Source of the DNA: Scyliorhinus canicula
Taxonomy: Eukaryota
Reading direction: 5' to 3'
DNA length: 64,000 nucleotides
Assembly: GCF_902713615.1 (NCBI RefSeq)
Contig: NW_024055852.1
Span: 742,920 to 806,919, forward strand
Position numbers and translations under genes: made by a program. Under the pieces are notes generated by a model. That model did not search any database, was not told the DNA's origin, and saw only the letters and a program-made list of their open reading frames with translations. Positions 3,649 through 64,000 of the stretch are shown here, in pieces. Within the stretch, counting starts at the first letter, position 1. Each line of letters starts with the position of its first letter.

Positions 3649-3649
<1 letters not shown>

Positions 3650-3683: not shown

Positions 3684-3686
<3 letters not shown>

Positions 3687-4798: not shown

Positions 4799-4838
4799 TT
4801 TCGCGTGTGAGGTGAATGTGATAATCACTACACTACAG
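4799..4838 (-). pseudogene. Truncated tRNA-Val (CAC) 5' half
   Basis: Reverse complement CTGTAGTGTAGTGATTATCACATTCACCTCACACGCGAAA; T-arm absent; flank 4840-5170 homologous to 3225-3460. Confidence 0.75.
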
Positions 4839-34400: not shown

Positions 34401-35771
34401 CGAGAGTCGCCTTTGGGACATTTCAGTTCTCAGAGCTGGATTCAGGTGGACGCAGAGGCAACACTGGTTCAGGTGGTGATGGGCATCCTGGTGCATCCTC
34501 AGGCACCGAGAGTAATTATGCAACATGTCGAGGATTTGAAAGAGAGAAACATGCCCCAATTTGATGGATTTTTATTTATGAGGCATCGAGGTGTCGCCCA
34601 ATTCTCAGCAACATTTGACACTGAGCCATACAGGGAGATATCAGAGCAGGTGGACAAAAGCTTGTATATAAGGTAGGTTTTAAGGAGATTCTGAAAATAG
34701 GAAAGTGAAGGAGTGAGCAGGAGAGGTTTAAGGAAGAATTTCCACAGCTTGGCTCTCAGGCAACTGAAAAAATAGGCACCAGTCATAGTGATTAATATTG
34801 CAAATGCTAAGTACAGCATTGTGGCGCAGTGGCTTAGTCCTGCTGCCTCACCGCGCCGAGGTCCCAGGTTCGATCCCGGCCCTGGGTCACTGTCCGTGTA
34901 GAGTTTCCACATTCTCCCCGTGTTTGCGTGGGTTTCGCCCCCACAACCCATCTTTGGTAGATTGGCCACGCTAAATTGCCCCTTAATTGGAAAAAATTAA
35001 TTGGGTACTCAATATTTTTTGCTTCTTTAAAAATAAATTTAGAGAATGCTCATGACCATAACATGTAAGATATAGAGCAAAGTAGGCCATTCGGCCCATC
35101 GAGTCTGCCCTGCCATTCCATGAAATGGTAGCTGATCTGATATCCTCAATTCCACTTTCCCGTCTTATCCCCATAATTCCCTTGATTCCATTCCTGATTT
35201 GCAATTGTCTATCTCAGTTTGAGTCCAGAATTAGATGAGAGCAAACATCTCGGTGGCTGGATGAGATGACAGAGATAGGGAGACACAACCCTGGAGGAAA
35301 AGGTGCTTCTTAAACAGGAAATTTTGTAGGTCACTGAGCCACTGGATTAACACAATATTACAGGGAGGTTGAATGTGGGAGATCTTCTGAGGGTGTGTTA
35401 GGATAGTTGGGTCTAGAGGAAATAAGAGAATGGATTGGGTAGCACAAGTCGATAGAACTGTGGCTTCACAGCACCAGAGTCCGAGGTTCGATTCCCCGCT
35501 GGGTCACTGCCTGTGCGGAGTCTGCATGTTCTCCCCGTGTCTACGTGGGTTTCCTCCGGGTGCTCCGGTTTCCTCCCACAGTCCAAAGATGTGCGGGTCA
35601 GGTGGATTGGGAATGCTAAATTGCCCGTAGTGTCCTAAACAGTAAGGTTAAGGGGGGATTGTTGGGTTATGGGTATAGGGTGGATACATGGGTTTGAGTA
35701 GGGTGATCATTGCTCGACACAACATCGAGGGCCAAAGGGCCTGTTCTGTGCTGTACTGTTCTATGTTCTAT

Positions 35772-36600
35772 AAACTAGGAGTCAGCCCCTCGAGCCTGAT
35801 CCTTACACACAAACTAGGAGTCGGCCCCTCGAGCCTGCTCCTTACACACAAACTAGGAGTCGGCCCCTCGAGCCTGTTCCTTGCACACAAACTAGGAGTC
35901 GGCCCCTCGAGCCTGCTCCTTAATACAAACTAGGAGTCGGCCCCTCGAGCCTGCTCCTTAATACAAACTAGGAGTCGGCCCCTCGAGCCTGCTCCTTAAT
36001 TCAAACTAGGAGTCGGCCCCTCGAGCCTGCCCCTTACACACAAACTAGGAGTCGGCCCCTCGAGCCTGCCCCTTACACACAAACTAGGAGTCGGCCCCTC
36101 GAGCCTGCTCCTTACATACAAACTAGGAGTCGCCCCTTGAGCCTGCTCCTTACATGCAGACTATGAGTCGGCCCCTCGAGCCTGCCCCTTACACACAAAC
36201 TAGGAGTCGGCCCCTCGAGCCTGCTCCTTACATACAAACTAGGAGTCGCCCCTCGAGCCTGCTCCTTACATGCAGACTATGAGTCGGTCCCTCGAGCCTG
36301 CTCCTTACACACAAACTAGGAGTCGGCCCTCGAGCCTGCTCCTTACATACAAACTAGGAGTCGGTCCTGCGAGCCTGCTCTTTACACACAAACTAGGAGT
36401 CGGCCCCTCGAGCCTGCTCCTTACATGCAGACTAGGAGTCGGCCCCTCGAGCCTGCTCCTTACACACAAACTAGGAGTCGGTCCTGCGAGCCTGTTCTTT
36501 ACACACAAACTAGGAGTCGGCCCCTCGAGCCTGCTCCTTACACACAAACTAGGAGTCGGCCCCTCGAGCCTGCTCCTTACATACAAACTAGGAGCCGTCC
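35772..36600 (+). repeat. 39-bp minisatellite, about 21 copies
   Basis: Unit aaactaggagtcggcccctcgagcctgctccttacacac with minor variants. Confidence 0.95.
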
Positions 36601-38106
36601 CCTCAATCCTGTTCCATCATTCAAAAAGTTTAACCTCAATTCCACATTCCTGCCGATCCCGATAACCTTGCCTATCAAGAATCTATCCATCCCTGCCTCA
36701 AAAATATTCAAGGACTCTACTTCCACTGCTTTTTAAGGGCGGTAGTTCCAAAGTCATAGAATTCCTCCAGTGCAGAAGGAGCGCAATCGACCCATCGAGT
36801 ATGCACCAACCTTCTGAAAGAGCACCCCACCCAGGCCCACACTATCCCACCCACTCCATCCTCATAACCCCACCCAACGTCCATATCCTTGGAGATGAAG
36901 TGGCAATTTCACATGGCTAATCCACCTAACCTGCACATCTAAAATAATAATCTTATAATAATCTTTATTGTCACAAGTAGGCTTACATTAATACTACAAT
37001 GGAGTTACTGCGAAAAGCCCCTTTGAACTGTGAGAGGAAAACGGAGCTCCCTAGGGAACCCACACAGATACAGTGCAAACTCCACACAACTACCCAGGGT
37101 TAGAATTGAACCTGGGTCCCTGGTGCTGTGAGGCAGTAGTTCTAATCACTTTGCCACCTCCTGTCTTACGAACCTCAAGAGAAAAGAAAATCCTCATCTC
37201 CATCTAAAATGGGTGACCCCTCTCTTTGCAATATTGCCTCCCTTGTTCTAGATTCTCCCACAAGAGGAAACATCCTCTCCACATCCACCCTGTCAAGACC
37301 CATCAGCATCTTATATCGTTCAATCCAGGTTTTACCCAAAACTTTAAATCTGTTTCCCGACTGCTTGTACGATCAGTGAATGGAAACAGAGTTTCTTTGT
37401 CCACCTGATCGAAACCTGGCATAATCTTGTGGACCTGAATCAAATCTCCCCTCAACCTCCTTTGCTGGAACCATTCTGGTAAATCTCCTCTGCAACTTCT
37501 CCAAGAACCTTCACATCCTTCCTGAAGAGTGGTGACCAGAGCTTTAGAAAGATTCATCGAATAGAATTAGAACTATAGAATTCCTACAGTGCAGAAGGAG
37601 GCCATTCGGTCCATCGAGTCTGCAGTGATTCTCTGAAAGGGCACCCTGCCTAGGCCCACACCCCTACCCTGTCCCTGTGACCCCCATAGCCCCATCTAAC
37701 CTGCACATCCCTGGACACTGAGGGGCAATTTATCAAGGACAATCCACCTAACTTTCCCTTTGGACTGTTAGAGTAAATCTGAGCACCGGGTGGAAACCCA
37801 CGCAGACATGGGGAGAAAGTTCAAACTCCACACAGACAGTCACCAACGCCGGAATTGAACCCGGGTCCCTGGTACTGTGAGGCAGCAGTGCTAATCACTG
37901 TACCACCAGAAGCATAGTTTATTTCTCAATATTACTGTTGATGAAGTTCAGATCGAATTTCCTTTGCCAACTACTCTCTCAGTATGCCTTGTAGACATAC
38001 AAAATCCCTCTTCACCTCTTTCACTCTCCTCCCAAAGAGGCCAGTTGGTTTTTTATAACAATCCAGCAGTTTTCATGGTCACTTTTTCCCAGAGCCGGCC
38101 CCACAA

Positions 38107-39177
38107 ATGACCAGATTCATTCAGCTCAATTTCACAACCTGCCTTTGTGTTTTTGTGCTTCTCTCTCACTCCCTATTTTCTGTTTTCAATCAGTTTCACA
38201 GGGTTTTCGAAGGGCAGGATTCAAAGATCTGGAAACTCAAACCAAGCATCACATCAGGATCTGACAGAGTCCTCAACTTATCACATCCTGAATATCATCG
38301 TACTTTGAACATGGAAGGAAAAAGCATTGTTCACAGTGGGGAGAAACCGAACACGTGTTGTGTGTGTGGACGAGGATTCGCTCGATCATCAGGCCTCACA
38401 AGCCACAAATGCAGTCACACTGAGGAGAAACCGTGGAAATGTGCGGACTGTGGGAAAGGATTCACTTCCCCATCCAAGCTGGAAACACATCGACGCAGTC
38501 ACACTGGGGAGAGGCCATTCACCTGCTCCAAGTGTGGGAAGGGATTTACTCAGTCATCCACTCTGTCCATACACCAGCGATTTCACTCCAGGGAGAGACC
38601 ATTCACCTGCTCCAAATGTGGGAAGGGATTCCCTCAGTCATCCGCTCTGTCTACACACCAGCAAATTCACACTGGGGAGAGACCATTCCCCTGCTCCAAA
38701 TGTGGGAAGGGATTCATTCAGTCATCCGCTCTGTCCACACACCAGCGAATTCACACTGGGGAGAGACCATTCACCTGCTCCAAGTGTGGGAAGGGATTTG
38801 CTATTTCATCCAACCTGCAGAAGCATCAGCGAGTTCACACTAATGAGAGACCGTTTCAATGTCCAGACTGCGGGAAGTGCTATAAAAGTTCTGGGGAACT
38901 GATGAGCCATCAACGTGTTCACACTGACGAGAAACCGTACACGTGCTCTTACTGCGGGACTGGGTTCAGACAATCATCTCACCTCACTGTACATCAGCGA
39001 ATTCACACTGGGGAGAGGCCATTCACCTGCTCTAAGTGTGGGAAGGGATTCATTCAGTTATCCAATCTGCAGAGGCACCAGCGAATTCACACTGGGGAGA
39101 AACCATTCACCTGTGAGTGTGGGAAGGGATTCACCACATCAATCCTCCTGCTGAGACACCAACGTGGCCATAAGTAA
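38107..39177 (+). CDS. C2H2 zinc-finger protein, 10 tandem fingers (likely ATG 38311 or spliced entry near 38194)
   Basis: Open frame with repeated C-x2-C-x12-H-x3-H and TGE(K/R)P linkers; no KRAB, SCAN or BTB domain visible in this exon. Confidence 0.92.
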
Positions 39178-39949: not shown

Positions 39950-40329
39950 GAGAGAAAGACAGACAATCCGGGAGCTTGGATCCAACACGGATACGTCCAG
40001 AAGACAAGGGTAGCAGCACAGTCATTATTTTATTTTTTTAAATTTAGAGTACCCAATTATATTTTTTTCCAATTCAGGGGCAATTTAGTGTGGCCAATCC
40101 ACTTAACCAACACATCTTTGGGATGTGGGGGTGAAACCCATGCAGACACGGGGAGAATGTGAAAACTCCACACAGTGGACCCAGGGCTGCGATTTGAACC
40201 CAGGTCCTCAGCGCTAAAGGAGCACAGTCATTACTGAGAAACAACAATACCTGCTGGAGACAAGACAGACAACTAGACAACACGAATCACAACACCAAGC
40301 TACCTGGACCCATATACGCGAGACAGGAA
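39950..40329 (+). mobile_element. Decayed Penelope-like RT, left part (target of the provirus)
   Basis: Joined across the TSD to 49742-49975 it reads DKG..V, FYLFPKIHK, RPI; contains a SINE with 13-bp TSD agcacagtcatta (40015-40027 and 40221-40233). Confidence 0.65.
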
Positions 40330-41388
40330 TGTTTTTCTAAATTCACCTCTCTGTTTTAGAATTCCCCTTATACCAAAGACCAAAAGGGCCAATATTCTAA
40401 AACGGCGAACAGGGATTCTCCCTCCCTGACTCCAGTACAGGCCTCTGTGAGTGCTATTCGGGTCAAACTCTCCTTTCAAGTTATCCCCCGGTATAACTCA
40501 TACCTTCACTGAAGAATTTTACTTACTTACCCCTTAATAGCATCGATGTCCCGGGTCCTGCGTTCTTAAGGAAGTGAAGTAAGCTAATAACCACTTTTTC
40601 AGGTTAAATTATTTTATTATTAACATACTCTTTTCTATTTCATTAAATTAAAAACATTATTTACTTTTGGATGTTGTCTGGTTGGTTGTTGAGGCCTTCA
40701 GACTCTCTCTCTCTCTCTTTCAATCCTCCTGGTCATCTCTCCTGGTGCTGTTTTCTCTTTTTCTCCTGGTCTTCTGTCTTCATTGGCTGCTGCTCCCTCG
40801 CATTCTTCTCCTGGGCCGTCTGCTCTTGGGTCTCTCCTGCCGCTGGGCCGCTCCTCTCCTGGGCCTTCCCGCTCCTGGGCCTTCCTGCCGCTGGGCCGTC
40901 TCGCTGCTGTCTCTTCTGCTTCTTCCTCCTTCTGGTGCCGCTGGTGTTCTGGTGCTGGTTTCTTTGTTCCTGCTGTTCTGCCTCGTGGGGAGAGAGAGAG
41001 GAGGAGCCCTGGAAGCCCGCACTGGCTGATCTCTTTGTTCCTGCTGTTCTGCCTCGTGGGGAGAGAGAGAGGAGGAGCCCTGGAAGCCCGCGCTGGCTGA
41101 TCTCTGGCGCGAGATCGGGACCTCCGATAAGGATCGGACTTCGGGTCTTAAAGGGGCAGTCCATCACAATTTTTCAACAGCACAAAGAAATTTTTTAAAA
41201 CTTTTTTCTTTTCCCTTTCTCCTGCTGCAGGTTGTAATAACCATTCTGATAGACTGAAATTGCTGCCCACAGTTTCTGTGCTCTTCAGCTGCCACCAACC
41301 TCTTGTGGGATCTTTCCCTGCACTCTCCCCGATCAGATATTGGCAGACCTCTATGTTTCAAATGACACATTCTGTATTTTCCAGAACA
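40330..41388 (-). repeat. 3' LTR (1059 bp)
   Basis: Matches 48683-49741; AATAAA at 40618-40613; TATA-like TTTAAG near 41150; internal 2 x 71-bp direct repeat 40961-41102; preceded by short purine tract AAGACGGGG. Confidence 0.96.
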
Positions 41389-42786
41389 CCCCGTCTTGAC
41401 ATTTGAAACATTACTATAATTTGGTTTATTGTCCCCCCATCCAATTGTACTAACATACATCCCTGATCATTGTCATTTGTATGCATATCACAGACCAGTG
41501 TCAATACGAGTCTTGTTTTCCGTTCCAGTCCAACTTGTTTTCCATTTCTGATTGGAATGTGGTAATTGTGATATCTTGTACCCCCCACTGATCCCCTTGT
41601 CTTATTAATTTAAAATGTTCAATTGATCCTGCTTGTATTCCTAACTTCCCCATTAATGTCTAACATTGTCGTGAATCATGTAAGTCTGCCAACCCCTGGT
41701 TTACATGAGAGAACATCTTTCTGACAACGTGTATATTTTTCATTTCAGCATTTACAAAACCACATTGAACCGTCTCTTTTTTTTTCTTCCCAAACAAATT
41801 CTCCCTATTGTTCTGTACATAGTAAAATTTTTATCTTATCTTAACACCTTATTCATTACCTAACCAATAGACTGTGTGTTACACTTTACGTATTTTCAAC
41901 TGTTAACAATTTAATATCAATATCGAAACATCGCTTCTTGGCTTTTTGGAACAATAATTATTACATACTAAACTAACCCTCTATTAAAACATTCACAGTT
42001 TAGAAATGCGGATCAAGTTATTTAACGACACACATACCCCCCGTATCATATATATACAACAGTCCCTATCAATTTACATGAAAATAAAAAAAATTTTCTT
42101 ATCAACGATTATAGCTCTTCAATGCAATATTGTTTTGTTGCATTGGTAACAATTTTCCCGCCGTAGTATCAAGCTACTAAAATTCTTAACCTATTATCAT
42201 TTATCATATTGGGGTTCCTCGTCAGTCGCTGCTATCTGCTGCCGAGACCTTAATGATTCCACCGCGTAGTACATACCCCATGGAGACCACAGATCATCCA
42301 TCAACTAATGTCCAGTTAGAGATGTCTGACCGGGGGTTTCACTGTCCAGTTATAATTTGATATTCTAATTTGTTTCTAACCCGTAAAGTTTTCCTCCGGG
42401 TTCTGTCATTTAATTCCCTCAAATTTGTAGCCAATTATATCATTAGTTTCCCCCCAATCCTGTCGAACAGATTCTTCTCTGGAGTGTAGTTCTCTTCCTT
42501 CTTGCGAACTGGTTTGTTATTGGAGTGTAGTTCTCTTCCTTCTTGCGAACTGGTTTGTTATTAATTTTTTCCACCTGAAAAAGCAAATGAACAGATCAAG
42601 GGTGGAGAGGGCCCTATTCTTTAATTCGGATTATCCCAGAAGTGCCCTCTCCAGGACTTCCGGATTCCTTTTGCCATCATTTCTTTTTGAACTGGTTTAT
42701 ATTCCATATCCTTGATGTACATCATACCATTAAGGCCTGTCAAGCCTCCTTCTGTCATTTCACCCCTGAGTGAGATTCGAAGAATC

Positions 42787-45700
42787 TCAAACTCCTCTGA
42801 TGCTCACTGGGTCGTGTGTTTCAAGCCTGAAACAATTTATTTTGCTCCAGACACCATGCTTCTCTAATTCAATTGTATGTGTACCCAGAATCTGAACAAT
42901 CTTGTCTTTACATTTTACAGTCTCACGAATGATTTTCCCCGCAGTCTTAGTTGGTAACTTTACCCAAACTTCGTCTCCTACTTGATAATTCCCAGATTCA
43001 CTTGGGTCTCCTTGTCCCTGGGGGACAGAGGTTCCAAGGTTGCTATTAAGATCAAATACTATTCTTTCAATGTCTTTATCCCAGCCTTTATTATTCTGAT
43101 TCTTTATGATCCAATCCTTTACTTTTCTTACAGACCTCTCAGCCATTCCATTACTCTCAGGTGCATATTTCACGGCCCAATTGATTGTTATTCCTCTGTC
43201 AGCACAAAAGTTAATAACAGTATTGTTTCTAAAGTGTGGCGCGTTGTCCATTCGGATCGATTCTGGTCTACCTCTGGAGGTCATCATTTCTGCCAATACC
43301 CTTTTGGTTGTGGCTCCATTTGCTTTGCTGGTTGCTCTAAGGTCACTTTCTCCCGTGCAGCTATCAGCTTTGACTAAAAAATACAAATTACCTTTGCTGC
43401 TTCTGGGAAAAAGTGGTCCTGCATAATCTAATGACCATTCCTGCATTGGTTTCTCAGTTTTTATGCTCCCATATGTTTTATTTCCTCTCTGTCCTCCACA
43501 GGCCATACATCTCTCACATTTTCTCCTTACTGCAGTTAAATGTTGTCTCCAATAGGCTATTTTAATTCCCAACTTCTTCAACTCCCTTGCGACTACAACA
43601 TGACCCCCATGTCCTGTGGCTTCATGTACTTGCTTAATTATCATTTGATGGTCGGCTGCTGAGTTCCCAAGAGTCCCCAAGATTATTGTCCTAAGTCTGG
43701 CTAATTCATCCACTTCCTGATTCCCCTTACACAGTTCCCCAATTCCTTTTGTGTGTGCTTTTTGATGAATTGTCTGGATCTCCATATCGGCTAAAATTTT
43801 ATCTATCTCTTCCCACTGTTCTTTCTGTTCCAGTAGTTTATTTCTACCGTTCGTCCAACCGTTTAGTTTCCAAAACTCCAAATCTTTCTCCAATCCTTGC
43901 TGCACGAAAAAGCTATCGGTTACAACGGTAACTTCCTGCAGCTTTCGCTGGTGACACTCCTTTAACCCTTGCAATACTCCCTCTACCTCAGCTGTCTGAG
44001 CTGATCCAATGATTATTCCCTGTTCCTCCACTACTATGTTTCCTGAATTTTTTAAAATGAATGCCCATCTGGCTTGTTCTTCGTCCTTCTTGACTTTACT
44101 ACCATCAGTATATAATACCCAAGCATTCACCAACTCCGTTTTACTAACTGGCTCATCAAGTTTCTGTCCCTTTTGAATGTTATGAACAAACATTAAGTCA
44201 GGGTTTAGAAGAATGGTTTCCCATCTTTCCCATCGAGCTGTATTCGCGCCTTGCTGGCAAATCTGTCTCTTGGTTAGCTCCTTTAACTCCAAAAACTCAG
44301 TTGTGACATAAATTTTCTTACCACCCGACAAGTTTTCTATCTCTGCTATTCTCTTTGTTATAGCTGCTAGGCATTTCTCGATGTTTGAAAACTTTTGTTC
44401 AGCTCTCGACCAGTTTCCTGTCAGATGTTTGATAGGTGTCTGATTGCTAAGATTAGCAAGTACCATACCATATCCATTTTTATAGATGTCTAATTTAATG
44501 CTTAAATCATCCTCTTCTTGTCTCCCAACTAATGACCCCGATATCGCAATTGCTGTCTTTAACTGATCTAACCCTCTCTGGGCCTCGCTGGTCCAAATAA
44601 AATCCCCTTTCAAGGTTTGATAAATGGCTTTAGCATAGAGGCTGAAGTCCTTCACTACTGGCCTTAGATATCCCAACATTCCCATTATTTTTTGAACCCC
44701 TTTTTTCGAAACAGGCGCAGTAATTTCAGCTATCTTCTTCCTCATTTCAATACTGGCCTCTCTACCTTCCTTCGATACTGAATAACCCAAATAGTTGACT
44801 TCGCTTCTCCCAATTTGACATTTCTTTAGCCCTATTTTAAAGCCTGCTTCGCTAAGTGTCTTAATGATCCTGGCCACTCTTTCCACATGTTTGTCCTGAT
44901 CGTCATCTCCAATTAATATATCATCGATATATACTAAAGCCAAATCATCTTGAATCAGCTCCCTGATTATTGCCTGAAAGTGATTTGGAGAATTAACATA
45001 TCCCTGTGGAAGTCTACAATATACATAATGCTTAGTTCCAAAGGTGAATGCTGTTTTCTCCCTGCTGTCTGGGTCTAATGGAACACTCCAGAATCCATTC
45101 GCCAAATCTATACTAGTTAAGTAAGTTTTTCCCGCGACTTGCTCTAAGGTAGCTTGTGGACTTATTAAATATCTCTTGTCCTTCTTTGTGACTTTATTTA
45201 AAGCTTTGTAATTTGTTACCATTCTAAATGTACCATCTGGTTTTCTTACTACCTGAAGTGGACTATTTGTTGAGGCATATGTGACCCCTTGAATAATCCC
45301 CTGCTGCTCCAATTCCTTGATTATTATCTCCAGCTCGCTCTTAGCTCCTCTAGGCAAAGGATACTGTTTTTGAGGTCTGTGTTGTCCCCCGTGAATTGCG
45401 TGTTGAAATTGCTGGCTAATCAAACCTGTGTCATTCTTACCTATCGCTAGGTTTGCTCCCATCAGTACTTCTTCCATCTTCTTCCAAGCTTCGTCATTTA
45501 AAATACTTTTCTCTTTCTGTTTCCTTATTTCCTCCATGTTATCAATTGGTTTTAATACCCTTATTTTTCCAGTATCTATTTTTATTAAATCTTTCCCTGC
45601 CATCAGATTATCAGTTCCTGATATTGCCAGTAATTCTCCCAATCTAACTTCTGGTCTAATATCCTTATTCCCTAATGCTCCTTCTACTATGTATTTCTTT

Positions 45701-45855
45701 CCTGTCGGATTTCCAGCTTCTTCCCTTATCATTGATATCTCAGCCCCTGTGTCCACTATAAATCTTTCCCCCTTGTATACTACTACTAATTCTCCTTTGT
45801 CTGTTTCTGTTGTTAGATTTTGTATAGCCTGTTTAAGGGGAGAAGCCGAATCCTG
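42787..45855 (-). CDS. pol: Pol polyprotein (protease, RT, tether/degenerate RNase H, RNase H, integrase); 1022 open codons following the gag stop
   Basis: DTGA; DLANGFW, RLPQGYVNSP, YIDD; LYTDGS/AEVE/TDS/VDELA; H-x4-H..C-x2-C; LDYAGP, MDN-x35-E. Frame open 33 codons upstream of the called GTG start. Confidence 0.96.
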   Translation of the reverse strand, partial: QDSASPLKQAIQNLTTETDKGELVVVYKGERFIVDTGAEISMIREEAGNPTGKKYIVEGALGNKDIRPEVRLGELLAISGTDNLMAGKDLIKIDTGKIRVLKPIDNMEEIRKQKEKSILNDEAWKKMEEVLMGANLAIGKNDTGLISQQFQHAIHGGQHRPQKQYPLPRGAKSELEIIIKELEQQGIIQGVTYASTNSPLQVVRKPDGTFRMVTNYKALNKVTKKDKRYLISPQATLEQVAGKTYLTSIDLANGFWSVPLDPDSREKTAFTFGTKHYVYCRLPQGYVNSPNHFQAIIRELIQDDLALVYIDDILIGDDDQDKHVERVARIIKTLSEAGFKIGLKKCQIGRSEVNYLGYSVSKEGREASIEMRKKIAEITAPVSKKGVQKIMGMLGYLRPVVKDFSLYAKAIYQTLKGDFIWTSEAQRGLDQLKTAIAISGSLVGRQEEDDLSIKLDIYKNGYGMVLANLSNQTPIKHLTGNWSRAEQKFSNIEKCLAAITKRIAEIENLSGGKKIYVTTEFLELKELTKRQICQQGANTARWERWETILLNPDLMFVHNIQKGQKLDEPVSKTELVNAWVLYTDGSKVKKDEEQARWAFILKNSGNIVVEEQGIIIGSAQTAEVEGVLQGLKECHQRKLQEVTVVTDSFFVQQGLEKDLEFWKLNGWTNGRNKLLEQKEQWEEIDKILADMEIQTIHQKAHTKGIGELCKGNQEVDELARLRTIILGTLGNSAADHQMIIKQVHEATGHGGHVVVARELKKLGIKIAYWRQHLTAVRRKCERCMACGGQRGNKTYGSIKTEKPMQEWSLDYAGPLFPRSSKGNLYFLVKADSCTGESDLRATSKANGATTKRVLAEMMTSRGRPESIRMDNAPHFRNNTVINFCADRGITINWAVKYAPESNGMAERSVRKVKDWIIKNQNNKGWDKDIERIVFDLNSNLGTSVPQGQGDPSESGNYQVGDEVWVKLPTKTAGKIIRETVKCKDKIVQILGTHTIELEKHGVWSKINCFRLETHDPVSIRGV

Positions 45856-48075
45856 TCAATATATACCGGGGCCTCCTCTGCCTCCTCCTCGGAATCCCCC
45901 TCGCAAGCGTCCCGGATACCCTTCTGGTGGTTGATATCTACCTTGCTCAATCCTCCCCTGACCAGCTGCTCTTCTTCTCCTATCCTCAATGAATCTGTCT
46001 CTTTCCTCCCGACTGAGGGCTAGGAATTGTTCCCTTGGTAAATAATCTAGATTTTGTGGTGGAGGTGGCCCTTGTGACCGCAAATTATACCCATGTTGTG
46101 GCATTGCTGGTTGTGCTGGATTCTGTTCCGATTTGTCAGGTATCTGTCGGTTTGGTGGTCTAATCTGAGCATTTTGTGTTGAAACATTATTTTGGGCAGC
46201 TGCTCTTTTTTGTTCCCCTTTTGTGTGTTTATCCTTAAATGCTTTGCCTGCCAAATCCAATTTAACCAGTTCTCTTCCTATTTCTCTTCTAGAGGTCGTT
46301 AACAGTATTGTTGAGAGGCTTTTTCCTCCTGGAATCTTGGATCCTAATTCCCTCAGGAATCTGACTACATCGACCCCCTCTTCCTTATTAACCTCATATA
46401 TTCGGTCGATATATGGTGTGAGGTGTTCCCCTGCATATGCTGCCTCTGTCATCTCTTTCATTAAATTAGCTCTCTCATTTCCCAAATCTAACTCATTTAT
46501 TAAATCTGAGACTTCGCCTGTAACTATTTCTCCCACTGTATGTAAATCAATCAATTTGGTGGATTCTCCTGATGCCCCCATTTTCTTCGCTAACTGTTTT
46601 AACCTCTGTGAATACTCAACTCTACTCTCCCCATGTTTCTTTGGGCCTGCTGTCTTCATTACGGCTGCTACTATTTTATACGGTACCATGCCTCCCTGTC
46701 CTTCCTCTGGACCTGGTGTAAATGACTGAACTATTTTCTCACTTCTGGGGCATGGTGTTCTCAAAGGGGCACCTCTATCTGGGTCCCTATATTCGGAGAA
46801 ATGTATCCGTCGTCGTACCGGTTCTTCCTCAAAATAGGGGGTACTATGTTGTGCAAACTCTTCCACCGATTCTATATATTCTTCAAACCTTGCACTTGGT
46901 ACTTGGCTATCTCGTGGAGCATAACTTGCCCTATCCATTGGAGTAGGAGCAGTTTTTTGGGGTCTTGGACGATTCTGTATCCTTTCCTGTGGTCTTAATG
47001 CTGCTATTATCTGGCCTTGTGTTTCTGTGCTGTTCCTTACCCTACTCATGGCTCTTCCGAAACTGTCATACCCTTTGCTCATTTGCCAAATTTTAGCTTT
47101 GGGGGTAACGTTTGGTAATTCTAGTAATTTCGTAGAATCAATTTGTTGACTTCCTCCTATTATTTCTCCTATTTTAAGTCCCCTAGCTGTAACCTCTCTT
47201 TCCCATCCTTCCTGATCTCTATGGTGTACCATTTCTGCTTCTGGATTATAAATATAATACGGTACATCCTTATTTACTGGTTGATAAGTGGAAGGTTGTT
47301 GTTGTTTCCAGTGATCGCTATAATCCCCTATTTCTAATGGTTTAGAATTTTTTCTATTCCCTATTCCTCTCTTTTGTTTGACTATTTCCTCATTCTCGGA
47401 TGAGGATGATAATTCTTCCTGTCCCATCACAGGAGGCGCCATAATCCCAACTATGCCTTGTTCCTCTTCACTTTCTTGTGGTTCAAAGAAATGATCGATA
47501 AACGCTTCTTTCTTATGTGTGGCAGATTGCTGAGGCCAATTTTCTTCCTGAAACAGACTTGGCTCTGGGTATTGAAAATTGTATCCCGTTGGGAAATTTT
47601 CACAGGGGTCCGAATTCTCTCGGCTATCTGATTCTAGGCCTGATTCCTCGTCACTTTCCATTTCTAATGGTTCATTTTTCTGCAGTTGTTTTATATATTT
47701 GCCTACCACTTCAGAGTTACTTTTGTGTTTACTAGGGATCTGTATTATTTCTGTCCTGTTTACTCCGTCAATGATTTTAATCAGTTTGGAACACACTTTG
47801 CCCACTTGAGCAGCTGCATGCTTCTGTCTGTGTCCAAATACGATTAGTGATTCAGCTCGCTTTTCAAATGCAAACTGACAAAGTGCTTTAAGGACCCTGA
47901 CAGAATCTGTATATTGCAGGGCTTTTGGCACTCTAACAAAGAGGGAGATATCTCCGTCTGGATACATATCTCTTGTCCAGGATTTCTTTTGCTCTTTTAA
48001 TTTCTTCCATTCCCTTTTCATTTCTACATTTCTCTTGACCGTATCCCAGGGCATGAGAATTACCCTAATTGCCAT
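45856..48075 (-). CDS. gag: Gag-like polyprotein, 739 aa from ATG 48075
   Basis: Long ORF between PBS and pol; AAAATGG Kozak context; acidic and proline-rich middle; Gly/Arg-rich C-terminus; no CCHC knuckle. Identity is by position, not a recognised motif. Confidence 0.85.
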   Translation of the reverse strand: MAIRVILMPWDTVKRNVEMKREWKKLKEQKKSWTRDMYPDGDISLFVRVPKALQYTDSVRVLKALCQFAFEKRAESLIVFGHRQKHAAAQVGKVCSKLIKIIDGVNRTEIIQIPSKHKSNSEVVGKYIKQLQKNEPLEMESDEESGLESDSRENSDPCENFPTGYNFQYPEPSLFQEENWPQQSATHKKEAFIDHFFEPQESEEEQGIVGIMAPPVMGQEELSSSSENEEIVKQKRGIGNRKNSKPLEIGDYSDHWKQQQPSTYQPVNKDVPYYIYNPEAEMVHHRDQEGWEREVTARGLKIGEIIGGSQQIDSTKLLELPNVTPKAKIWQMSKGYDSFGRAMSRVRNSTETQGQIIAALRPQERIQNRPRPQKTAPTPMDRASYAPRDSQVPSARFEEYIESVEEFAQHSTPYFEEEPVRRRIHFSEYRDPDRGAPLRTPCPRSEKIVQSFTPGPEEGQGGMVPYKIVAAVMKTAGPKKHGESRVEYSQRLKQLAKKMGASGESTKLIDLHTVGEIVTGEVSDLINELDLGNERANLMKEMTEAAYAGEHLTPYIDRIYEVNKEEGVDVVRFLRELGSKIPGGKSLSTILLTTSRREIGRELVKLDLAGKAFKDKHTKGEQKRAAAQNNVSTQNAQIRPPNRQIPDKSEQNPAQPAMPQHGYNLRSQGPPPPQNLDYLPREQFLALSREERDRFIEDRRRRAAGQGRIEQGRYQPPEGYPGRLRGGFRGGGRGGPGIY

Positions 48076-48500
48076 TTTCGGATTTTTAGTTCTGTTCCTG
48101 GTTGTCCCTTTCAGGTGCACTCTGAAATTAAGGATAAGTACCCTTTCTGGGCCCTATCCAAGGCTGACCAAGGCACTATCTTCCTGCTTTAGTTAAGGGT
48201 CGATTGATTATTGGTTTCTGAAGATAAGCGTCCCTATTTTCCAGAAAATGTCCGCACAATCTGCCTTACCCTGAGGATGATTTATTCTTTAGCCCCTTTT
48301 ACCAGTAATGGATGCAAGATTTTAGTGCTGTCACCAAAATGTCTTGCAGACTTTTCTCGGGGTCAGTATCTTCTAGTCTACTGATTTTCACACCCAACCT
48401 GAGCTTCTGTCCCCTCGATCCACAGAATATCCTTACAAAAGCCAATCACACATGACTTTCCAGACTAAACTCGGCAGGTAAAGTCTGACTCACACATAGA

Positions 48501-48663
48501 CTAGAAACTTCTAATATTCTAGCCTTTGTGCCGGTTAGAAACTTCTAATATTCCAACCGTTTCTTGGGAACTAGAAACTTCTAATATTCTAGCCCCTACT
48601 CTTCTTAACTAGAAACTTCTAATATTCTAGCCTCGCTTTACCTAGAAACTTCTAATATTCTAG
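48501..48663 (-). repeat. Five 22-nt hairpin repeats with invariant 10-nt loop, directly 3' of the PBS
   Basis: Copies at 48501, 48535, 48571, 48609, 48642; RNA CUAGAA-UAUUAGAAGU-UUCUAG; spacers 12, 14, 16, 11 nt. Confidence 0.92.
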
Positions 48664-48664
48664 G

Positions 48665-48682
48665 CCTCCACGCTGGGCGCCA
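48665..48682 (-). promoter_or_regulatory. Primer-binding site, tRNA-Lys(CUU)/Lys1,2-like
   Basis: TGGCGCCCAGCGTGGAGG directly after the LTR CA; 15/18 to TGGCGCCCAACGTGGGGC, and one difference is a G-U wobble. Confidence 0.85.
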
Positions 48683-49741
48683 TGTTTTTCTAAATTCACC
48701 TCTCTGTTTTAGAATTCCCCTTATACCAAAGACCAAAAGGGCCAATATTCTAAAACGGCGAACAGGGATTCTCCCTCCCTGACTCCAGTACAGGCCTCTG
48801 TGAGTGCTATTCGGGTCAAACTCTCCTTTCAAGTTATCCCCCGGTATAACTCATACCTTCACTGAAGAATTTTACTTACTTACCCCTTAATAGCATCGAT
48901 GTCCCGGGTCCTGCGTTCTTAAGGAAGTGAAGTAAGCTAATAACCACTTTTTCAGGTTAAATTATTTTATTATTAACATACTCTTTTCTATTTCATTAAA
49001 TTAAAAACATTATTTACTTTTGGATGTTGTCTGGTTGGTTGTTGAGGCCTTCAGACTCTCTCTCTCTCTCTTTCAATCCTCCTGGTCATCTCTCCTGGTG
49101 CTGTTTTCTCTTTTTCTCCTGGTCTTCTGTCTTCATTGGCTGCTGCTCCCTCGCATTCTTCTCCTGGGCCGTCTGCTCTTGGGTCTCTCCTGCCGCTGGG
49201 CCGCTCCTCTCCTGGGCCTTCCCGCTCCTGGGCCTTCCTGCCGCTGGGCCGTCTCGCTGCTTTCTCTTCTGCTTCTTCCTCCTTCTGGTGCCGCTGGTGT
49301 TCTGGTGCTGGTTTCTTTGTTCCTGCTGTTCTGCCTCGTGGGGAGAGAGAGAGGAGGAGCCCTGGAAGCCCGCGCTGGCTGATCTCTTTGTTCCTGCTGT
49401 TCTGCCTCGTGGGGAGAGAGAGAGGAGGAGCCCTGGAAGCCCGCGCTGGCTGATCTCTGGCGCGAGATCGGGACCTCCGATAAGGATCGGACTTCGGGTC
49501 TTAAAGGGGCAGTCCATCACAATTTTTCAACAGCACAAAGAAATTTTTTAAAACTTTTTTCTTTTCCCTTTCTCCTGCTGCAGGTTGTAATAACCATTCT
49601 GATAGACTGAAATTGCTGCCCACAGTTTCTGTGCTCTTCAGCTGCCACCAACCTCTTGTGGGATCTTTCCCTGCACTCTCCCCGATCAGATATTGGCAGA
49701 CCTCTATGTTTCAAATGACACATTCTGTATTTTCCAGAACA
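48683..49741 (-). repeat. 5' LTR (1059 bp)
   Basis: Same length as the 3' LTR; only differences found are 49262/40909 and 49374/41021; donor-like G|GTAAGT at 48883. Confidence 0.96.
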
Positions 49742-50739
49742 GGAAGGAGAATTGGAGACAGATTGGAAGAACTCAGACTCCAGGCACATTAACCAAAAAC
49801 AGATGGAATATCTGAGGGGACAACAGGTCGAACTAAGGAAGTTCTACCTGTTCCCTAAAATACACAAACACCCAACGCATGGACAGTACCAGGGAAATAT
49901 CCCCATACAGACCCATCAGATCAGACTGTGAGAGAGAAAAATCCTACTGAATAGCTGAAACATCAACACACTGCTACCTGTAGTTTTTAAAATAAATTTA
50001 GAGTATCCAATTCATTTTTTCCAATTAAGGGGAAATTGAGTGACCAATCTACCTACCCTGCACATTTTTGGGTTGTGGGGGCAAAACCCACGCAAACACG
50101 GGGAGAATGTGCAAACTCCACATGGACAGTGACCCAGAGCCGGGAACGAACCTGGGACCTCAGCGCCGTGATGCAGTAATGCTAACCACCGTGCTGCATC
50201 TGCTCCTGGTAGTTGATGGAATAGTGGTTCAATAAATATAATTTGTGGATTAAAAATGTGTGTAATATAGAGTAAAAACAGGAAATAATAATCATATTTA
50301 TTATTGTCACAAGTAGGCTGACATTAACACTGCAATGAAGTTGCTGTGAAAATCCCCTAGTCACCACACTCCGGCGCCTGTTCGGGTACACTGAGGGACA
50401 ATTCAGAATGTCCAAATTACCTAACAGCACGTCTTTCAGAACTTTGGGAGGAAACCAAAGCACCCGGAGGAAACCCACGCAGACACAGGGAGAATGTGCA
50501 GATTCCGCACAGTGACCCAAGCCGGGACTCAAACCTTGGACTCTGAAGCTGTGAAGCAACAGTGGTAACCACTGTGCTACGGTGCTGCCCGATGCTGGAT
50601 GAACTCAACAGGTTTGGCAGCATCATAGAATCCCTACAGTGCAGAAGGAGGCCATTAGGCCCATCGAGTTAGCACTAACTATACAAAAGAGCACCCCACC
50701 CAGGTGTACTTACCATGTCCTCTCCCCATAACCCCAAAA

Positions 50740-51680
50740 GGAGAGGCACAAGGACACCGGCACCATGGACAAACCGTGGAAATGTGGGGACTGAGGGAAG
50801 GGATTCCTATCCCCGTCTGTGCTGGAAATCCATCGGCGCAGTCACACCGGGGAAAGGCCATTCACCTGCTCCGAGTGTGGGGAGAGGTTCACTCGACTAA
50901 CCCCCACCTCACTACACACCAACTTGTTCACTCTGACACCAAACCTTTTAAATGTTCCGACTGTGAGAAGAGCTTTAAAAGAAAAGAACATCTGCTGACA
51001 CACCAGCGAGTTCACACCAGGGAGAGGCCGTACACCTGCTCTGAGTGTGGGAAAGGATTCACTCAGTTATCCAGCTTTCTGTTACACCAGCGAGTTCACA
51101 CTGGGGAGAAACCAGTTGCCTGCCCAAATGTGGGATGGCATTCACTCAGGTACGCAAACTGTTGGATCACCAGCGAGTTCACACTGGGGAGAGACCATTC
51201 ACTTGTTCTGTGTGTGGGAAGGGATTCACTCAGTTATCAATCCCGATGAGACACCAGAGCATTCACACTGGGGGGGGGGGGGGGGGGGGGGGGGGTTGGG
51301 GAAACCATTCACCTGCCTGAAGTCTGGGAAGGGATTCACTCAGTCTGCCCACCTCACTTCACACCAACGTGTTCACTCTGACACGAGACCTTTTAAATGT
51401 TCCGCCTGTGAGAAGAGCTTCAAAGGCAAAATGGATCTGCTGATTCACCAGCGCAGTCACACTGGAGAGAGGCCATTCACCTGCTCCGTGTGTGGGAAGG
51501 GATTCACTCAGCATTCCCTCCGGCTGAAACACCAGCGCATTCACACCAGGGAGGGAGCGTTTATCTGTTCCCTTTGTGGGAAGGGATTCATTCGGTCATC
51601 TACCCTGCAGACACACCAGCGAGTTCACAAGTGCCTCCAGGACTCTGCTGTTATTGATGTTAATTACATCCAGGACTGAG
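50740..51680 (+). pseudogene. C2H2 zinc-finger pseudogene (frameshifted)
   Basis: Fingers split across ORFs 50704-51249, 51045-51320 and 51047-51679; 26-G run at 51270-51295 within a linker; extra finger fragment 51900-52050. Confidence 0.85.
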
Positions 51681-53640: not shown

Positions 53641-54004
53641 CTGGGCATGAAGCACAATGAGAGGTTTGGATACTTTATTTAAGCACATTATTCTGATATC
53701 ACTTGGACATGGGCAGCAACACCTGGGACATGGTAAATCATCTCGTAAAACCAGTGATAGGTTTGTTTACTGTTTTCATAATTGTGACTGGGTCACGCTC
53801 ACGATTCATGGGAAATGCAACTCCCCAGGTTCACTGACCCACTCCCTCCAGATCAGTTTTCACTCCAAGGGTCTTGACATCTGCCGTAGTCTTTATCCAG
53901 CCATGTATGTTCAGCTCACACTGCCCAACAACCAGCCTCTCCTGCACTGGGGCACAGGGTTTCCTTCACCAAAAATCTGTCCTGGTCCACGCACATCGAC
54001 GCTA

Positions 54005-54610
54005 CCACCAATAAAGCACAACAGCACCTATACTTCTTCAGGAAACTAAGGAAATTCGGCAAATCCACACTGACTCTTACCAACTTTTACAGATGCACCA
54101 TAGAAAGCATCCTATCTGGCTGCATCACAGCCTGGTGTGGCAACTGCTCTGCCCAAGACCGCAAGAAACTTCAGAGAGTAATGAACACAGCCCACTCCAT
54201 CACACAAACCTGCCTCTCATCTATTGACTCTATCCACACCTCCCGCTGCCTTAGGAAAGCGGGCAGCATAATCAAAGACCCCTCCCACCCAGCTTACTCA
54301 CTCTTACAACTTCTTCCATCGGGCAGGAGATACAAAAGTCTGAGAACACGCACGAACAGATTGAAAACAGCTTCTTCCCCGTTATTACCAGATTCCGAAA
54401 CAACCCTCTTATGGACTGACCTGATTAATACTACACTCCTGTATGCTTCATCCAATGTCTTTTTCTACATATTTACATTGTGTACCTTGTGTTGCCCCAT
54501 TATGTATTTTCTTTTTAGTTTACTTTCTTTTTATGTACGAAATGATCTGTTTGAGCTGCTCGCAGAATAATACTTTTCACTGTACTTGGTGCACGTGACA
54601 ATAAACAAAT
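54005..54610 (+). mobile_element. Rex1/Babar-like LINE 3' fragment
   Basis: KAQQHLYF.RKLRKFG, NFYRCTIESILSGCITAW, RKKLQRV; ends GTGACAATAAAC. Confidence 0.75.
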
Positions 54611-56569: not shown

Positions 56570-58170
56570 CCACCAATCAAAAAGAACAAAGAACAAAGAA
56601 AATTACAGCAGAGGAACAGGCGCTGATCCAGATCCTTTATCTAAACCTGTTGCCTATTTTCCAAGGTCTACTTCTCTCTGTTCCTCACCCGTTCATATAT
56701 CTGTCCAGATCAAGGGTGGGCAAACTTTTCCGTGCAAGGGCCACATTCAGAAATTCACAATTTTAAAGGGCCGCATAGTATATTAAGTAAAATAATTACT
56801 TCACCCAGTTATGATTCTGGGCGCCTCATATAGAACATAGAACAGTACAGCACAGAACAGGCCCTTCGGCCCTCGATGTTGTGCCGAGCAATGATCACCC
56901 TACTCAAGTCAACGTATCCACCCTATACCAGTAAGTAACCCAACAGCCCCCCCATTAACCTTAAAAAAAAAAAAAAAATTTTAACTTTTTTTTAATGACT
57001 TGATCTTGGTGGGCCGCATAAAGACCTTTGGCGGGCCGCATGCGGCCCACGGGCCGTAGTTTGCCCATCCCTGATCCAGATGCATCTTAAATGATGCCAT
57101 CGTACCCACCTCTACCACCTCTGCTGGCAAAGCATTCCAGGCACCCACCACCCTCTGCGTAAAACACTTTCCAAGTACATCTCCCTTAAACTTTTCCCCT
57201 CTCACCTTGAAATCGCAACCCGTTATAACTGACACCCCCGCTCTTGGAAAAAGCTTGTTGCTATCCACCCTGTCCATACCTCTCATAATTTTGTAGACCT
57301 CAATCAGGTCTCCCCTCAACCTCCGTTTTCCAATGAAAACAATCCTAATCTACTCAACCTTTCTTCATAGCTAGCACCCTCCATACCAGGCAACATCCTG
57401 GTGAACCTCCTTTGCACCCTCTCCAAGGCATCCACATCCTTCTGGTAATGTGGCGACCAGAACTGCACGCAGTATTCCAAATGTGGCCGAACCAAATTCC
57501 TATACAACTGTAACATGACCTGCCGACTCTTGTACTCAATACCCCGTCCGATGAAGGCAAGCATGCTGTATGCCTTCTTGACCACTCTATCCACCTGCGT
57601 TGCCACCTTCAGGGTACAATGGACCTGAATCCCCAGATTTTTCTGTACATCAATTTTCCCCAGGACTCTTCCATTGACCATATTGTCTGCTCTTGAGTTA
57701 GATCTTCCAAAATGCATCACCTCGCATTTGCCTGGATTGAACTCCATCTGCCATTTCTCTGCCCAACTCTCCAATCTATCTATATTTTGCTGTATTCTGA
57801 CAGTCCCCGCCTCACTATCTGCAACTCCACCAATCTTAGTATCATCTGCAAACTTGCTCATCAGACCACTTATACCTTCGTCCAGATCATTTATGTAGAT
57901 CACAAACAACAGTGGTCCGAGCACGGATCCCTGTGGAACACCACTAGTCACCCTTCTCCATCTTGAGACACTCCCTTCCACCACTACTCTCGGTCTCCTG
58001 TTGCCCAGCCAGTTCTTTATCCATCTAGCTAGTACACCCTGAACCCCATACGACTTCACTTTTTCCATCAACCTGCATGGGAAACTTTATCAAATGCTTT
58101 ACTGAAGTCCATGTATATGACATCTACAGCCCTTCCCTCATCAATTAACTTTGTCACTTCCTCAAAGAAT
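56570..58170 (-). mobile_element. CR1/HER1-type LINE RT fragment interrupted by a hAT element
   Basis: ORF 57316-58071 with GVPQGSVLGP, FADD and RPHLEYC; frameshift into 56981-57319. Confidence 0.88.
56711..57073. mobile_element. Non-autonomous hAT (Charlie-like) DNA transposon
   Basis: TIRs CAAGGGTGGGCAAAC / GTTTGCCCATCCCTG; 8-bp TSD gtccagat / atccagat (7 of 8); GGGCCGCA subterminal motifs. Confidence 0.85.
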
Positions 58171-58559: not shown

Positions 58560-59281
58560 AACAGCAGCAACAACAGCTGAATCCAAACCCTGCTGTTACC
58601 TGTGAACTTGCTGATGTCTGTGTAGGTTGTTTGACTGAGTGAATCTCCTCCCACAAATGGAGCAGTTGAACAGCCTCTCCCAGTACCGCTCCCACGTGTG
58701 GGTGACATGGTAGCACAGTGGTTAGCACCGTTGCTTCACAGCTCCAGGGTCCCAGGTTTGATTCCCGGCTTGGGTCACTGTCTGTGCGGAGTCTGCACTT
58801 TGTCCCAGTGTCTGCGTGGGTTTCCTCCGGCTGCTCCGGTTTCCCCCCACAGTCCAAAGATGTGCAGGTTAGATGGATTGGCCATGCTAAATTGCCCTTA
58901 GTGTCCAAAAAGGTGAGGTGGGTTATGGGTTAGGTTGGAGGTATGGGCTTAAGTCAGGTTCTCTTTCCAAGGGCCGGTGCACTCGATGGGCCAAATGTCC
59001 TCCTTCTGCACTGTAAATTCTATGATTCTGTTTCAGTGTGAACTCGTTGGTGTTTCAGCAGATTCTGTTTACTTTTAAAGCTCTTCTCAGTCAGCACATT
59101 TAAAAGGTCTCTGATCAGTATGAACAAGTTGATGACTCAGGAGTGATGACCGAGTGAATCCCTTCCCACACACGGAGCAGGTGAATGGCCTTTCCCCAGT
59201 ATGACTGCGTTGGTGGAACAGTAAATCCTTTCTGCTTTTAAAGCTCTTCTCACAGTCAGCACATTTAAAAGGTCTCTCATC
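58560..59281 (-). pseudogene. C2H2 zinc-finger gene 3' part, disrupted by L1 (at 59282) and a SINE (58703-59030)
   Basis: [30 protein letters not shown]..; 3' end resembles 51620-51710. Confidence 0.8.
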
Positions 59282-62200: not shown

Positions 62201-64000
62201 GACTACCAGAAAGATGGAAGCTCAGTGGAAGAAAGCACAGGGAGCGGTGTATGAGAATGGGGAGAAGGCGAGCAGGATGCTGGCACACCAGCTCCGAAAG
62301 AGGGACGCGGGCAGGGAGATTGGGGGAGTGACGGATAAGGCTGGGATGGTGGTGCGGAGGAGTGTAGATGTTAATGGGGTCTTCAGGGACTTCTATGGGG
62401 AACTGTACCGGTCGGAGCCCCCGGTGGAGGGGGGTGGAATGGGGCGCTTCTTGGACAAGCTGCGATTCCCGAGGGTGGAGGAGGAGCAGGTGGAGGGACT
62501 GAGGGCGCCGCTCGAGCTGGAGGAGGTGGTCAAAGGGATAGGGAGCATGCAGTCGGGGAAGGCACCTGGGCCGGACCGGTTTTCCGGCGGAATTTTATAA
62601 AAGGTATTTGGACCTGTTGGGCCAACTGTTGGTCCGGACCTTTAACGAGGCATGGCAGGGGGGGGGCTTTGCCCCCAACTATGTCACGGGTGCTGATTTC
62701 CTTGATCCTGAAGCGGGACAAGGACCCTCTGCAGTGCGGGTCATATAGGCCGATTTCGCTGCAAAACGCCGATGCTAAGCTGCTGGCAAAGATCCTGGTC
62801 ACTAGAATAGAGGATTGTGTGCCCGGGGTCATTCATGAGGACCAGAAGGGGTTTGTGAAGGGAAGGAAGTTGAATGCGAACATGCGAAGGCTCCTCAATG
62901 TCATTGTGATGCCGGCCATGGAAGAGGAGGCAGAGATAGTGGTGGCATTGGATGCGGAGAAGGCCTTTGATAGGGTGGAGTGGGAGTACTTGTGGGAGGT
63001 GTTGGAGAGGTTTGGGTTTGGGGAGGGGTTTATTCGGTGGGTGAGGCTGCTCTACGAGGCCCCGATGGCAAGTGTAGCCACGAATAGGAGGAGGTCGGAG
63101 TACTTTCGGCTGCATCGAGGGACGAGACAGGGGTGCCCCCTGTCCCCCTTGCTCTTCGCGTTGGCAATTGAACCCCTGGCACTGAGGGAGTCAGGGAACT
63201 GGAGGGGCATGGTGCGGGGTGGGGAGGAGCATCGAGTGTCACTGTATGCGGATGACCTGTTGCTGTATGTGGCGGACCCGGTGGGGGGGGATGCCGGAGG
63301 TGATGAGGATCCTTGGGGAATTCGGGGGTTTCTCTGGGTATAGGTTGAACCTGGGAAGGAGTGAGTTGTTTGTGGTGCATCCGGGGGATCAAGAGGAGGG
63401 GATTGGTAGGCTCCCACTGAAGCAGGCAGGGAGGAGCTTCAGGTACCTAGGTGTCCAGGTGGCTGGGAGTTGGGGGGCCCTGCACAAGCTCAACCTCAAA
63501 AGGTTTGTGGAGCAGATGGAGGAGGAGTTTAAGAGATGGGATATGTTAACGCTGTCACTGGCGGGGAGGGTGCAGTCCGTTAAGATGATGGTGCTCCCGA
63601 GGTTTTTCTTCCTGTTCCAATGCCTCCCCATCCTTATCCCGAAGGCCTTTTTTAGGAGGGTCAACAGGGCTATTACGGGATTTGTGTGGGCACATGGGAC
63701 TCCGAGGGTGAGAAGGGTGTTCCTGGAACGGGGCAGGGATGGGGGGGGGGGTTGGCGTTGCCCAACCTCTGTGGGTACTATTGGGTTGCCAACGCAGCGA
63801 TGGTGTGTAAGTGGGTAATAGACGGGGAAGGGGCAGCATGGAAGAGGATGGAGGTGGTGTCCTGTGTGGGCACGAGCCTGGAGGCGCTGGTAACGGCGCC
63901 GTTGCTGCTCCCTCCAATGAGGTATACCATGAGCCCGGTGGTGGCGGCTACCCTCAACATTTGGGGGCAATGGAGACGTCATAGGGGAGAAGTGGGAGGC
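59282..64000 (+). mobile_element. Near-full-length defective L1-clade LINE (continues beyond window)
   Basis: ORF1 59432-60277 (coiled coil, RRKNLRILG; in-frame TAG at 59699-59701); ORF2 from about 61190 with WNVRGLN, LQETH, SDH, QGCPLSP and YADD across frameshifts; SINE between ORFs with 14-bp TSD (60289-60302 and 60527-60540). Confidence 0.92.

Follow-up and report, generated by a model that had tools for sequence, protein, structure and literature searches.

An in-frame UGA joins gag and pol in a foamy-like endogenous retrovirus of the catshark Scyliorhinus canicula and may be read through with the help of a predicted RNA stem

Expression of Pol separately from Gag, through splicing, is a textbook mark of the foamy viruses. 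Here we describe an endogenous retrovirus (ERV) of foamy-like type whose gag and pol instead share one reading frame with a single TGA between them. It lies on the minus strand of a 64,000-nt stretch of the genome of the catshark Scyliorhinus canicula (assembly GCF_902713615.1, contig NW_024055852.1, positions 742,920 to 806,919 of the forward strand). We call this whole stretch the window, and all coordinates are counted from its first letter.

In foamy viruses such as the prototype and feline foamy viruses, Pol has its own ATG, in another frame than gag, and is translated from a spliced mRNA that lacks Gag sequence (PMC3705302, PMC8278194). These viruses resemble the catshark element in that they provide the closest solved Pol structures and have a Gly/Arg-rich Gag tail without a Cys-His box, a 4-nt target-site duplication and a GGGTG border. 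The catshark element differs from them in having pol in the gag frame, no ATG before the protease active site and no env or accessory open reading frame (ORF). UGA codons at in-frame gag-pol junctions have been described for SSSV and for one ERV each of zebrafish and frog (PMC13517186 section 4.1.2), as well as for the class III element XtERV-S (PMC8278194). In XtERV-S, SSSV and the zebrafish ERV, as in the window, gag and pol occupy one frame with a UGA between them, and readthrough is presumed. These elements, however, belong to other lineages (ERV-S class III, or epsilon-related) and carry the hexanucleotides UGAAGA, UGACGA and UGAAGU, and section 4.1.2 of PMC13517186 names for them neither a downstream element nor a stop/sense polymorphism. 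A UGA at this place is thus not new in itself, and a preliminary description of the locus overstated the case where it implied that UGA rather than UAG was a novelty.

Two further systems are instructive. The nsP3/nsP4 opal codon of alphaviruses (Venezuelan equine encephalitis virus, VEEV; Sindbis virus, SINV; chikungunya virus, CHIKV) is, like the stop in the window, a UGA-C, and it is followed by a long-range stem that begins at +9 to +16 and closes 126-177 nt; the tabulated stems are at +9 with 133 nt for CHIKV and at +12 with 126 nt for VEEV (PMC13517186 Table 1). These viruses are unrelated to the catshark element, and their hexanucleotides are UGACGG or UGACUA, whereas that of the window is UGACAG. 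The stems of VEEV and SINV are conserved and tested, whereas that of the window is a prediction from one sequence. Natural stop/sense variants occur at alphavirus readthrough sites, as they do in the catshark family, whereas the junction stop of retroviruses is described as fixed (PMC13517186 section 4.2.3). In the gammaretrovirus Moloney murine leukemia virus, an in-frame stop likewise yields Gag and a little Gag-Pol, but its UAG-G context, 8-nt spacer and compact 50-nt pseudoknot are not seen in the window, which has UGA-C.

The junction reads GGT ATA TAT TGA CAG GAT TCG on the minus strand, with the TGA at 45858-45856 in the context UGA-CAG. The gag ORF (45856..48075, minus strand) has 739 codons from the ATG at 48075 (stop to stop, 45856-48153) and abuts, in the same frame, a pol ORF of 1022 open codons (42787..45855, minus strand) that encodes protease, reverse transcriptase (RT), tether, RNase H and integrase. 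After 33 pol codons comes V-D-T-G, the protease active site D-T-G occupying pol codons 35-37 (45745..45753, minus strand) with the catalytic Asp at codon 35. In related Pol proteins whose start is close to the active site, DTG/DSG is found at residue 11-80. Spumaretrovirinae in the strict sense start Pol at its own codon in a frame other than gag; here the frame is the same and the first in-frame pol ATG is codon 42, past the catalytic Asp. The sequence thus bears out the preliminary description of the junction: gag, TGA and pol in frame, 33 codons to V-D-T-G and no earlier ATG. The chance that a random nonsense change lands 15 codons or fewer from the junction is about 1.6%. Because of this low probability and because an independent published consensus carries the same stop, the stop is more than chance. 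Judged from sequence, the in-frame UGA junction is real and a property of the family. The junction pattern had no match in metagenomes, and viral contigs contained no relatives of the element; four loci at 27-29% identity from a second metagenome scan were not used.

On sequence grounds, the element belongs to the published catshark family ERV-Spuma.0-Sca, which was grouped with Aci/AliFLERV (PMC10699275). In the consensus of that family, gag spans 1538-3796 and pol 3920-6865, both in frame 3 (PMC10699275 supplement). The window and the consensus agree exactly in three spacings: gag, counted from an upstream CTG to its stop, measures 2259 nt, the first pol ATG follows the stop by 123 nt, and the end of pol is 3069 nt away from the stop. 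The consensus has the TGA and the junction text of the window and departs from the window at other visible places; therefore it is not merely a copy of it. Four of nine motifs were matched at the homologous place in the readable consensus text, which does not extend to the 3' arm of the RNA helix discussed below. The published annotation starts pol at the ATG 123 nt past the stop and so omits the protease Asp. The words "stop" and "readthrough" are absent from the main text of PMC10699275, and the annotation missed the in-frame UGA junction. Compared with the window copy, which lacks env, the consensus has shorter and different long terminal repeats (LTRs) and an annotated env (PMC10699275).

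The Pol of the element is closest to foamy viruses and to the foamy-like ERVs (FLERVs) of fish. The best PDB relatives are foamy protease-RT structures (E 6.6e-82), and RT is 41-47% identical to fish proteins that have a motif in common with Aci/AliFLERV. The nearest protein, P0121 of Scyliorhinus torazame, is 90% identical over Pol. Other FLERV characters are present as well, namely the 4-nt target-site duplication, the GGGTG border between polypurine tract and LTR, and a GR/GQR-rich Gag tail without a Cys-His box. In a FastTree tree of 25 RT sequences, among which there was no orthoretrovirus and no lokiretrovirus, the window and S. torazame together branched off deeply, next to the foamy viruses and the fish FLERVs (support 0.93). 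Lokiretroviruses, whose Env resembles the fusion proteins of Mononegavirales, are not reported from cartilaginous fish in the literature covered. The same tree placed P0160 (from Logan), a 1687-aa single ORF in which a Gag with the motif YNLRPR is fused to Pol, as sister to the true foamy viruses (support 0.98), which makes it another candidate, within the foamy clade, for a Pol made without splicing.

Downstream of the stop, folding of 150 nt predicts a 16-pair helix between 45850-45834 and 45728-45712, whose 10 and 6 pairs flank a single mismatch; the centroid structure contains no other helix. The 5' arm (45834..45850, minus strand) extends from +9 to +25, counted from the U of UGA, and includes an 11-nt pyrimidine tract. 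The 3' arm (45712..45728, minus strand) closes a domain of 139 nt. The outer 10 pairs have probabilities of 0.79-1.0, the inner 6 of 0.52-0.61. The start at +9 and the 139-nt span of this predicted stem fall within the alphavirus-type geometry (+9 to +16, about 80-180 nt). The duplex energy of -23.4 kcal/mol was reached in 0.1% of 2000 synonymous resamplings (P=0.001). The helix is the best of 32 windows for its arm and ranks fourth among 1693 codon positions in gag-pol; across five choices of window, 1-9 of about 1700 positions were better. Among diverged contigs of low depth, the best 40 of 46 differences include 11 at 45727-45785 and none at 45712-45726, no more than a weak hint, given end effects. 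The pyrimidine tract to which the preliminary description pointed (45844-45835, 11 nt past the stop) is present, and its proposed pairing with 45774-45766 is possible. That duplex reaches only -13.0 kcal/mol, however, and the corresponding 105-nt fold is no better than shuffles (z -0.10). We therefore rejected 45774-45766 and the other proposed partner, GGAGAA (-8.3), as far weaker than 45728-45712 (-22.9). A search of Rfam returned one weak chance match and no match to a gammaretroviral-type pseudoknot.

The stop is not present in every copy of the family. We compared short-read contigs of 8 of 24 listed runs; seven cover the junction and run X15 does not. Where a run is labelled as RNA, this label is a guess. 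In six of the seven, a sense codon replaces the stop at about 99-100% of the depth (676.4 of 682.6 in run X1 and 2119 of 2119 in run X16). A low-depth contig of run X1 that is 80% identical falls outside the depth counted for the majority letter at the stop site. The seventh run, X5, is split: the sense form accounts for 391 of a depth of 804, and a contig begins at 45859, which is what a second allele would produce. This second allele is probably the stop. A similar split of X5 occurs at 45761, and the published consensus has the letter of the window both there and at the stop site.

Divergence between the majority contigs and the window is about 1%. Among the best 40 of 409 differences, with the junction position omitted, 24 are coding differences between window and majority contigs (10 synonymous, 14 nonsynonymous; dN/dS about 0.37). 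Where S. torazame proteins cover these amino-acid differences, they agree with the window at four of six, and at 45761 the residue of the window is found in three of four aligned distant homologs. Because this outgroup sides with the window at four of six sites, the sense lineage is not simply ancestral, and it looks at least partly derived. Because the published consensus carries the same TGA at the same spacing, the stop is inherited; we dropped a private nonsense change as an explanation for this reason. The sequences thus indicate a family that is polymorphic for stop and sense. The concern that other copies might lack the TGA was justified for most short-read contigs, though not for the family as a whole. 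We also observed contigs that skip about 2.6-2.7 kb of pol (42897-45585, 42976-45574) and very deep diverged contigs over 45580-45696, which together point to abundant internally deleted relatives. In run X16, a loose end at 45896 continues into gag-like sequence from further upstream and suggests a copy with the Gag tail deleted.

We consider stem-stimulated readthrough of the UGA to be the best reading of this junction, with a probability of roughly 0.57. Gag would end at the inherited in-frame UGA, and a minority of ribosomes may read through it to yield a Gag-Pol fusion. The predicted long-range stem, a few bases downstream, would form and stimulate this readthrough, and the protease would then free itself from Gag. 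The sense-codon subfamily would be a derived form that makes only Gag-Pol and that would need cleavage, or Gag from stop-bearing copies. This reading is favored because gag and pol share a frame, no ATG precedes the catalytic Asp, the consensus has the TGA with identical spacings, the helix is rare and the UGA is followed by C. Further points in its favor are the agreement of the stem's start and size with those tabulated for CHIKV and VEEV, the in-frame UGA junctions of other retroviruses from aquatic hosts, the stop/sense variants of alphaviruses, the outgroup residues and the 80%-identical contig of run X1. Readthrough accounts, too, for the common frame, for the codons that stay open and for the success of the fused subfamily. 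The preliminary description had already proposed readthrough aided by a 3' stem; that proposal remains the best supported, with a stem that is different from, and longer than, the one it described.

Several observations weigh against readthrough. Although C follows the UGA, UGACAG is not one of the type II hexanucleotides (UGACGG, UGACUA). The foamy viruses characterized so far splice pol (PMC3705302, PMC7828637), and the UGA junction of Tca2, for which a structure is also predicted, gave no readthrough on its own (PMC2194720). With regard to the stem, the arm windows were set after the helix had been seen, and with the 5' arm held fixed an equally good partner arises in 5.8% of resamplings. 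Folding of the region as a whole is ordinary (z -1.09 over 150 nt; with synonymous resampling as the null, z -0.33 to +0.99), and a change at 45727 in diverged copies falls on an inner helix pair. All four presumed-RNA runs that cover the junction, from four studies, have a single contig across it, which carries the sense codon at full depth; stop-bearing copies are therefore not seen to be expressed. Finally, the pyrimidine tract of the helix is also that of the best splice acceptor in gag-pol, and because both share it the evidence for readthrough and that for splicing are not independent.

Splicing is the strongest rival and a serious one, although we consider it rather unlikely. In this scenario, Pol would be made in foamy style from an RNA in which an intron from 48063 or 47040 to an acceptor at 45829 removes gag and the stop and places the gag ATG in frame on pol. 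The candidate 3' splice site (45829..45859, minus strand) comprises a branch-point-like TTGAC over the stop, a pyrimidine tract and CAG|G. The acceptor CTTCTCCCCTTAAACAG|G lies 27 nt past the stop and is in phase 0 with pol; only 3 of 559 AGs combine phase 0 with a place between the stop and the Asp. It scores highest of 562 AG sites in gag-pol and joint highest of 720 in the internal region (null P 0.009); the only acceptor of equal score lies past pol, where env would start. A candidate donor, AGG|GTAATT (48060..48066, minus strand), is four codons past the gag ATG and in phase 0; it ranks ninth of 152 GT sites upstream of the junction (null P 0.048), occurs in the consensus text of ERV-Spuma.0-Sca and would be accounted for by splicing. 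The matrices behind these scores are ad hoc, with approximate values, and the P values come from a codon null. The alternative is stronger than the preliminary description allowed, and the acceptor it suggested is present and in phase. Moreover, the protease Asp would lie about 30 residues from the N-terminus, much as in foamy Pol (21-24), and foamy viruses splice pol through a suboptimal site (PMC3705302, PMC7828637).

Other points speak against splicing and leave it less favored than readthrough. Among 15 of the 16 joints listed for the four presumed-RNA runs, none enters 45828; this counts for little, as these contigs display no splicing of any kind, env included, contigs lose rare forms and the copies are sense. 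The pol mRNA of foamy viruses has no Gag sequence and its own ATG (PMC3705302), unlike the RNA envisaged here. Splicing would leave the shared frame and nine open codons unexplained (about 0.33 x 0.45), and it would equally leave unexplained the helix, which would bury the pyrimidine tract.

A second rival, which we regard as improbable, takes the fused Gag-Pol ORF as the working form. The TGA would then be nonsense inherited in a Gag-only subfamily supplied with Pol in trans, and the stem and the acceptor would be there by chance. The sense codon at about 99-100% of depth in six of the seven covering runs fits this view. So does the dN/dS of about 0.37 (14 nonsynonymous and 10 synonymous of the 24 listed differences): selection is therefore relaxed, and one nonsense change would not be unexpected. 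Internally deleted copies do occur (skip of 42897-45585), fused ORFs exist in relatives, namely P0160 (1687 aa) and the gene model P0125 (2206 aa), and two annotations of lamprey elements give one ORF across gag and pol. On the other hand, the stop sits exactly at the border of Gag and protease, which chance would produce in 1.6% of cases, and it is present in a consensus that differs from the window. The outgroup sides with the window at four of six sites, as do three of four distant homologs at 45761, and the helix is rare under the codon null. A separate start of Pol beyond the stop, through reinitiation at one of the near-cognate codons (ATA, pol codon 11; others at codons 33 and 34) or from a cryptic junction promoter, partly as at the Tca2 junction with its minor promoter activity (PMC2194720), is very improbable, with a weak start context and the helix left unexplained.

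The provirus that carries this junction spans 9,412 nt (40330-49741, minus strand). Its 5' LTR (48683..49741, minus strand; TG...CA) and 3' LTR (40330..41388, minus strand) are each 1059 nt long and differ at two positions, which at the rate of PMC10699275 would correspond to an insertion age of about 1.9 million years. By its sequence, it is a recently inserted copy without env. A target-site duplication, TTCC, flanks it (40326..40329, minus strand, and 49742-49745). The primer-binding site (48665..48682, minus strand) directly follows the CA of the LTR and is presumably of the tRNA-Lys type. The polypurine tract and the GGGTG border with the 3' LTR are at 41386..41398 (minus strand); PMC5210030 (section 3.4) describes this motif in foamy viruses and in foamy-like ERVs of fish. 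Both LTRs have a 71-nt tandem duplication in U3 (40954-41105, 49307-49458), and LTR pieces among the contigs differ from the window LTR by about 5%, compared with about 1% in gag-pol. The leader (48290-48589) has five copies of a repeat of about 22 nt. Contigs of all four runs skip 300 nt there between 8-nt direct repeats, which looks like a template-switch deletion and not a splice.

Pol matched RVT_1, RT_RNaseH, RNase_H and rve of Pfam. Gag had no Pfam match, and no homologs were found among 2517 candidates from longer proteins or 7431 from proteins of near length; a Retrotrans_gag assignment in Atlas (0.85) is no more than a lead. A YNLR motif in Gag (coding positions 46089-46078) resembles the foamy chromatin-binding motif. 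The single-sequence fold of the C-terminal part of Gag was poor (predicted local distance difference test 56) and had no Foldseek match with E < 0.001, and it was not used. In the expected env region (41389..42786, minus strand), which has a strong splice acceptor at 42575, the longest sense ORF is at most 73 codons and none of the three frames, with stops read as X, matched Pfam. This copy has no ORF of more than 73 codons after pol and hence lacks the env and accessory (tas/bet) genes that, together with an internal promoter, mark the strict Spumaretrovirinae. Loose contig ends at 42197 and 42618 in several runs continue into other sequence and perhaps come from copies that retain more of env.

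The provirus lies inside a zinc-finger gene cluster, with C2H2 arrays on both sides (38059-39177 and 50659-51679, plus strand; 59087-59848, minus strand), and is antisense to the two nearest arrays. Elsewhere in the window there are broken LINE-type endonuclease and reverse transcriptase frames (57316-58086, minus strand; 60935-63343, plus strand), a 39-nt minisatellite (35708-36596), a 269-nt tandem duplication of 99% identity (16600-17137) and a frame (53890-54570, plus strand) that matches Pfam ALKBH8_N (E 1e-09) and is probably repeat-derived.

What looks new at this locus is the place of the UGA in a foamy-like lineage, the extended stem and the switching between stop and sense within a retroviral family. 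For foamy-like ERVs, neither readthrough nor this stem is described in the literature covered, including the available parts of PMC5210030, PMC5512871 and its supplements, PMC10699275 and PMC4422223; most subscription journals were outside this coverage. The complete picture would be of a shark retrovirus of the foamy lineage whose Pol arises from UGA readthrough in the manner of alphaviruses, across a long-range stem, in a family that naturally alternates between a leaky stop and a fully fused Gag-Pol and has amplified both forms within a single genome. We hold it tentatively, at somewhat less than even odds. If it is true, spliced, Gag-independent Pol is not universal in the foamy-like clade and perhaps not ancestral to it. 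Whether spliced Pol is ancestral or derived is a question on which a foamy-like element that branches deeply, has its stop in frame and lacks a Pol start bears directly. Were readthrough to be correct, the stem would provide retroviral UGA junctions, for which the section of PMC13517186 names no such element, with a defined RNA structure that stimulates readthrough, and the family would offer a retroviral parallel to the opal/sense switch of alphaviruses. If Pol is spliced after all, the catshark element would have a new mode of starting a foamy-type Pol, with a start codon borrowed from gag.

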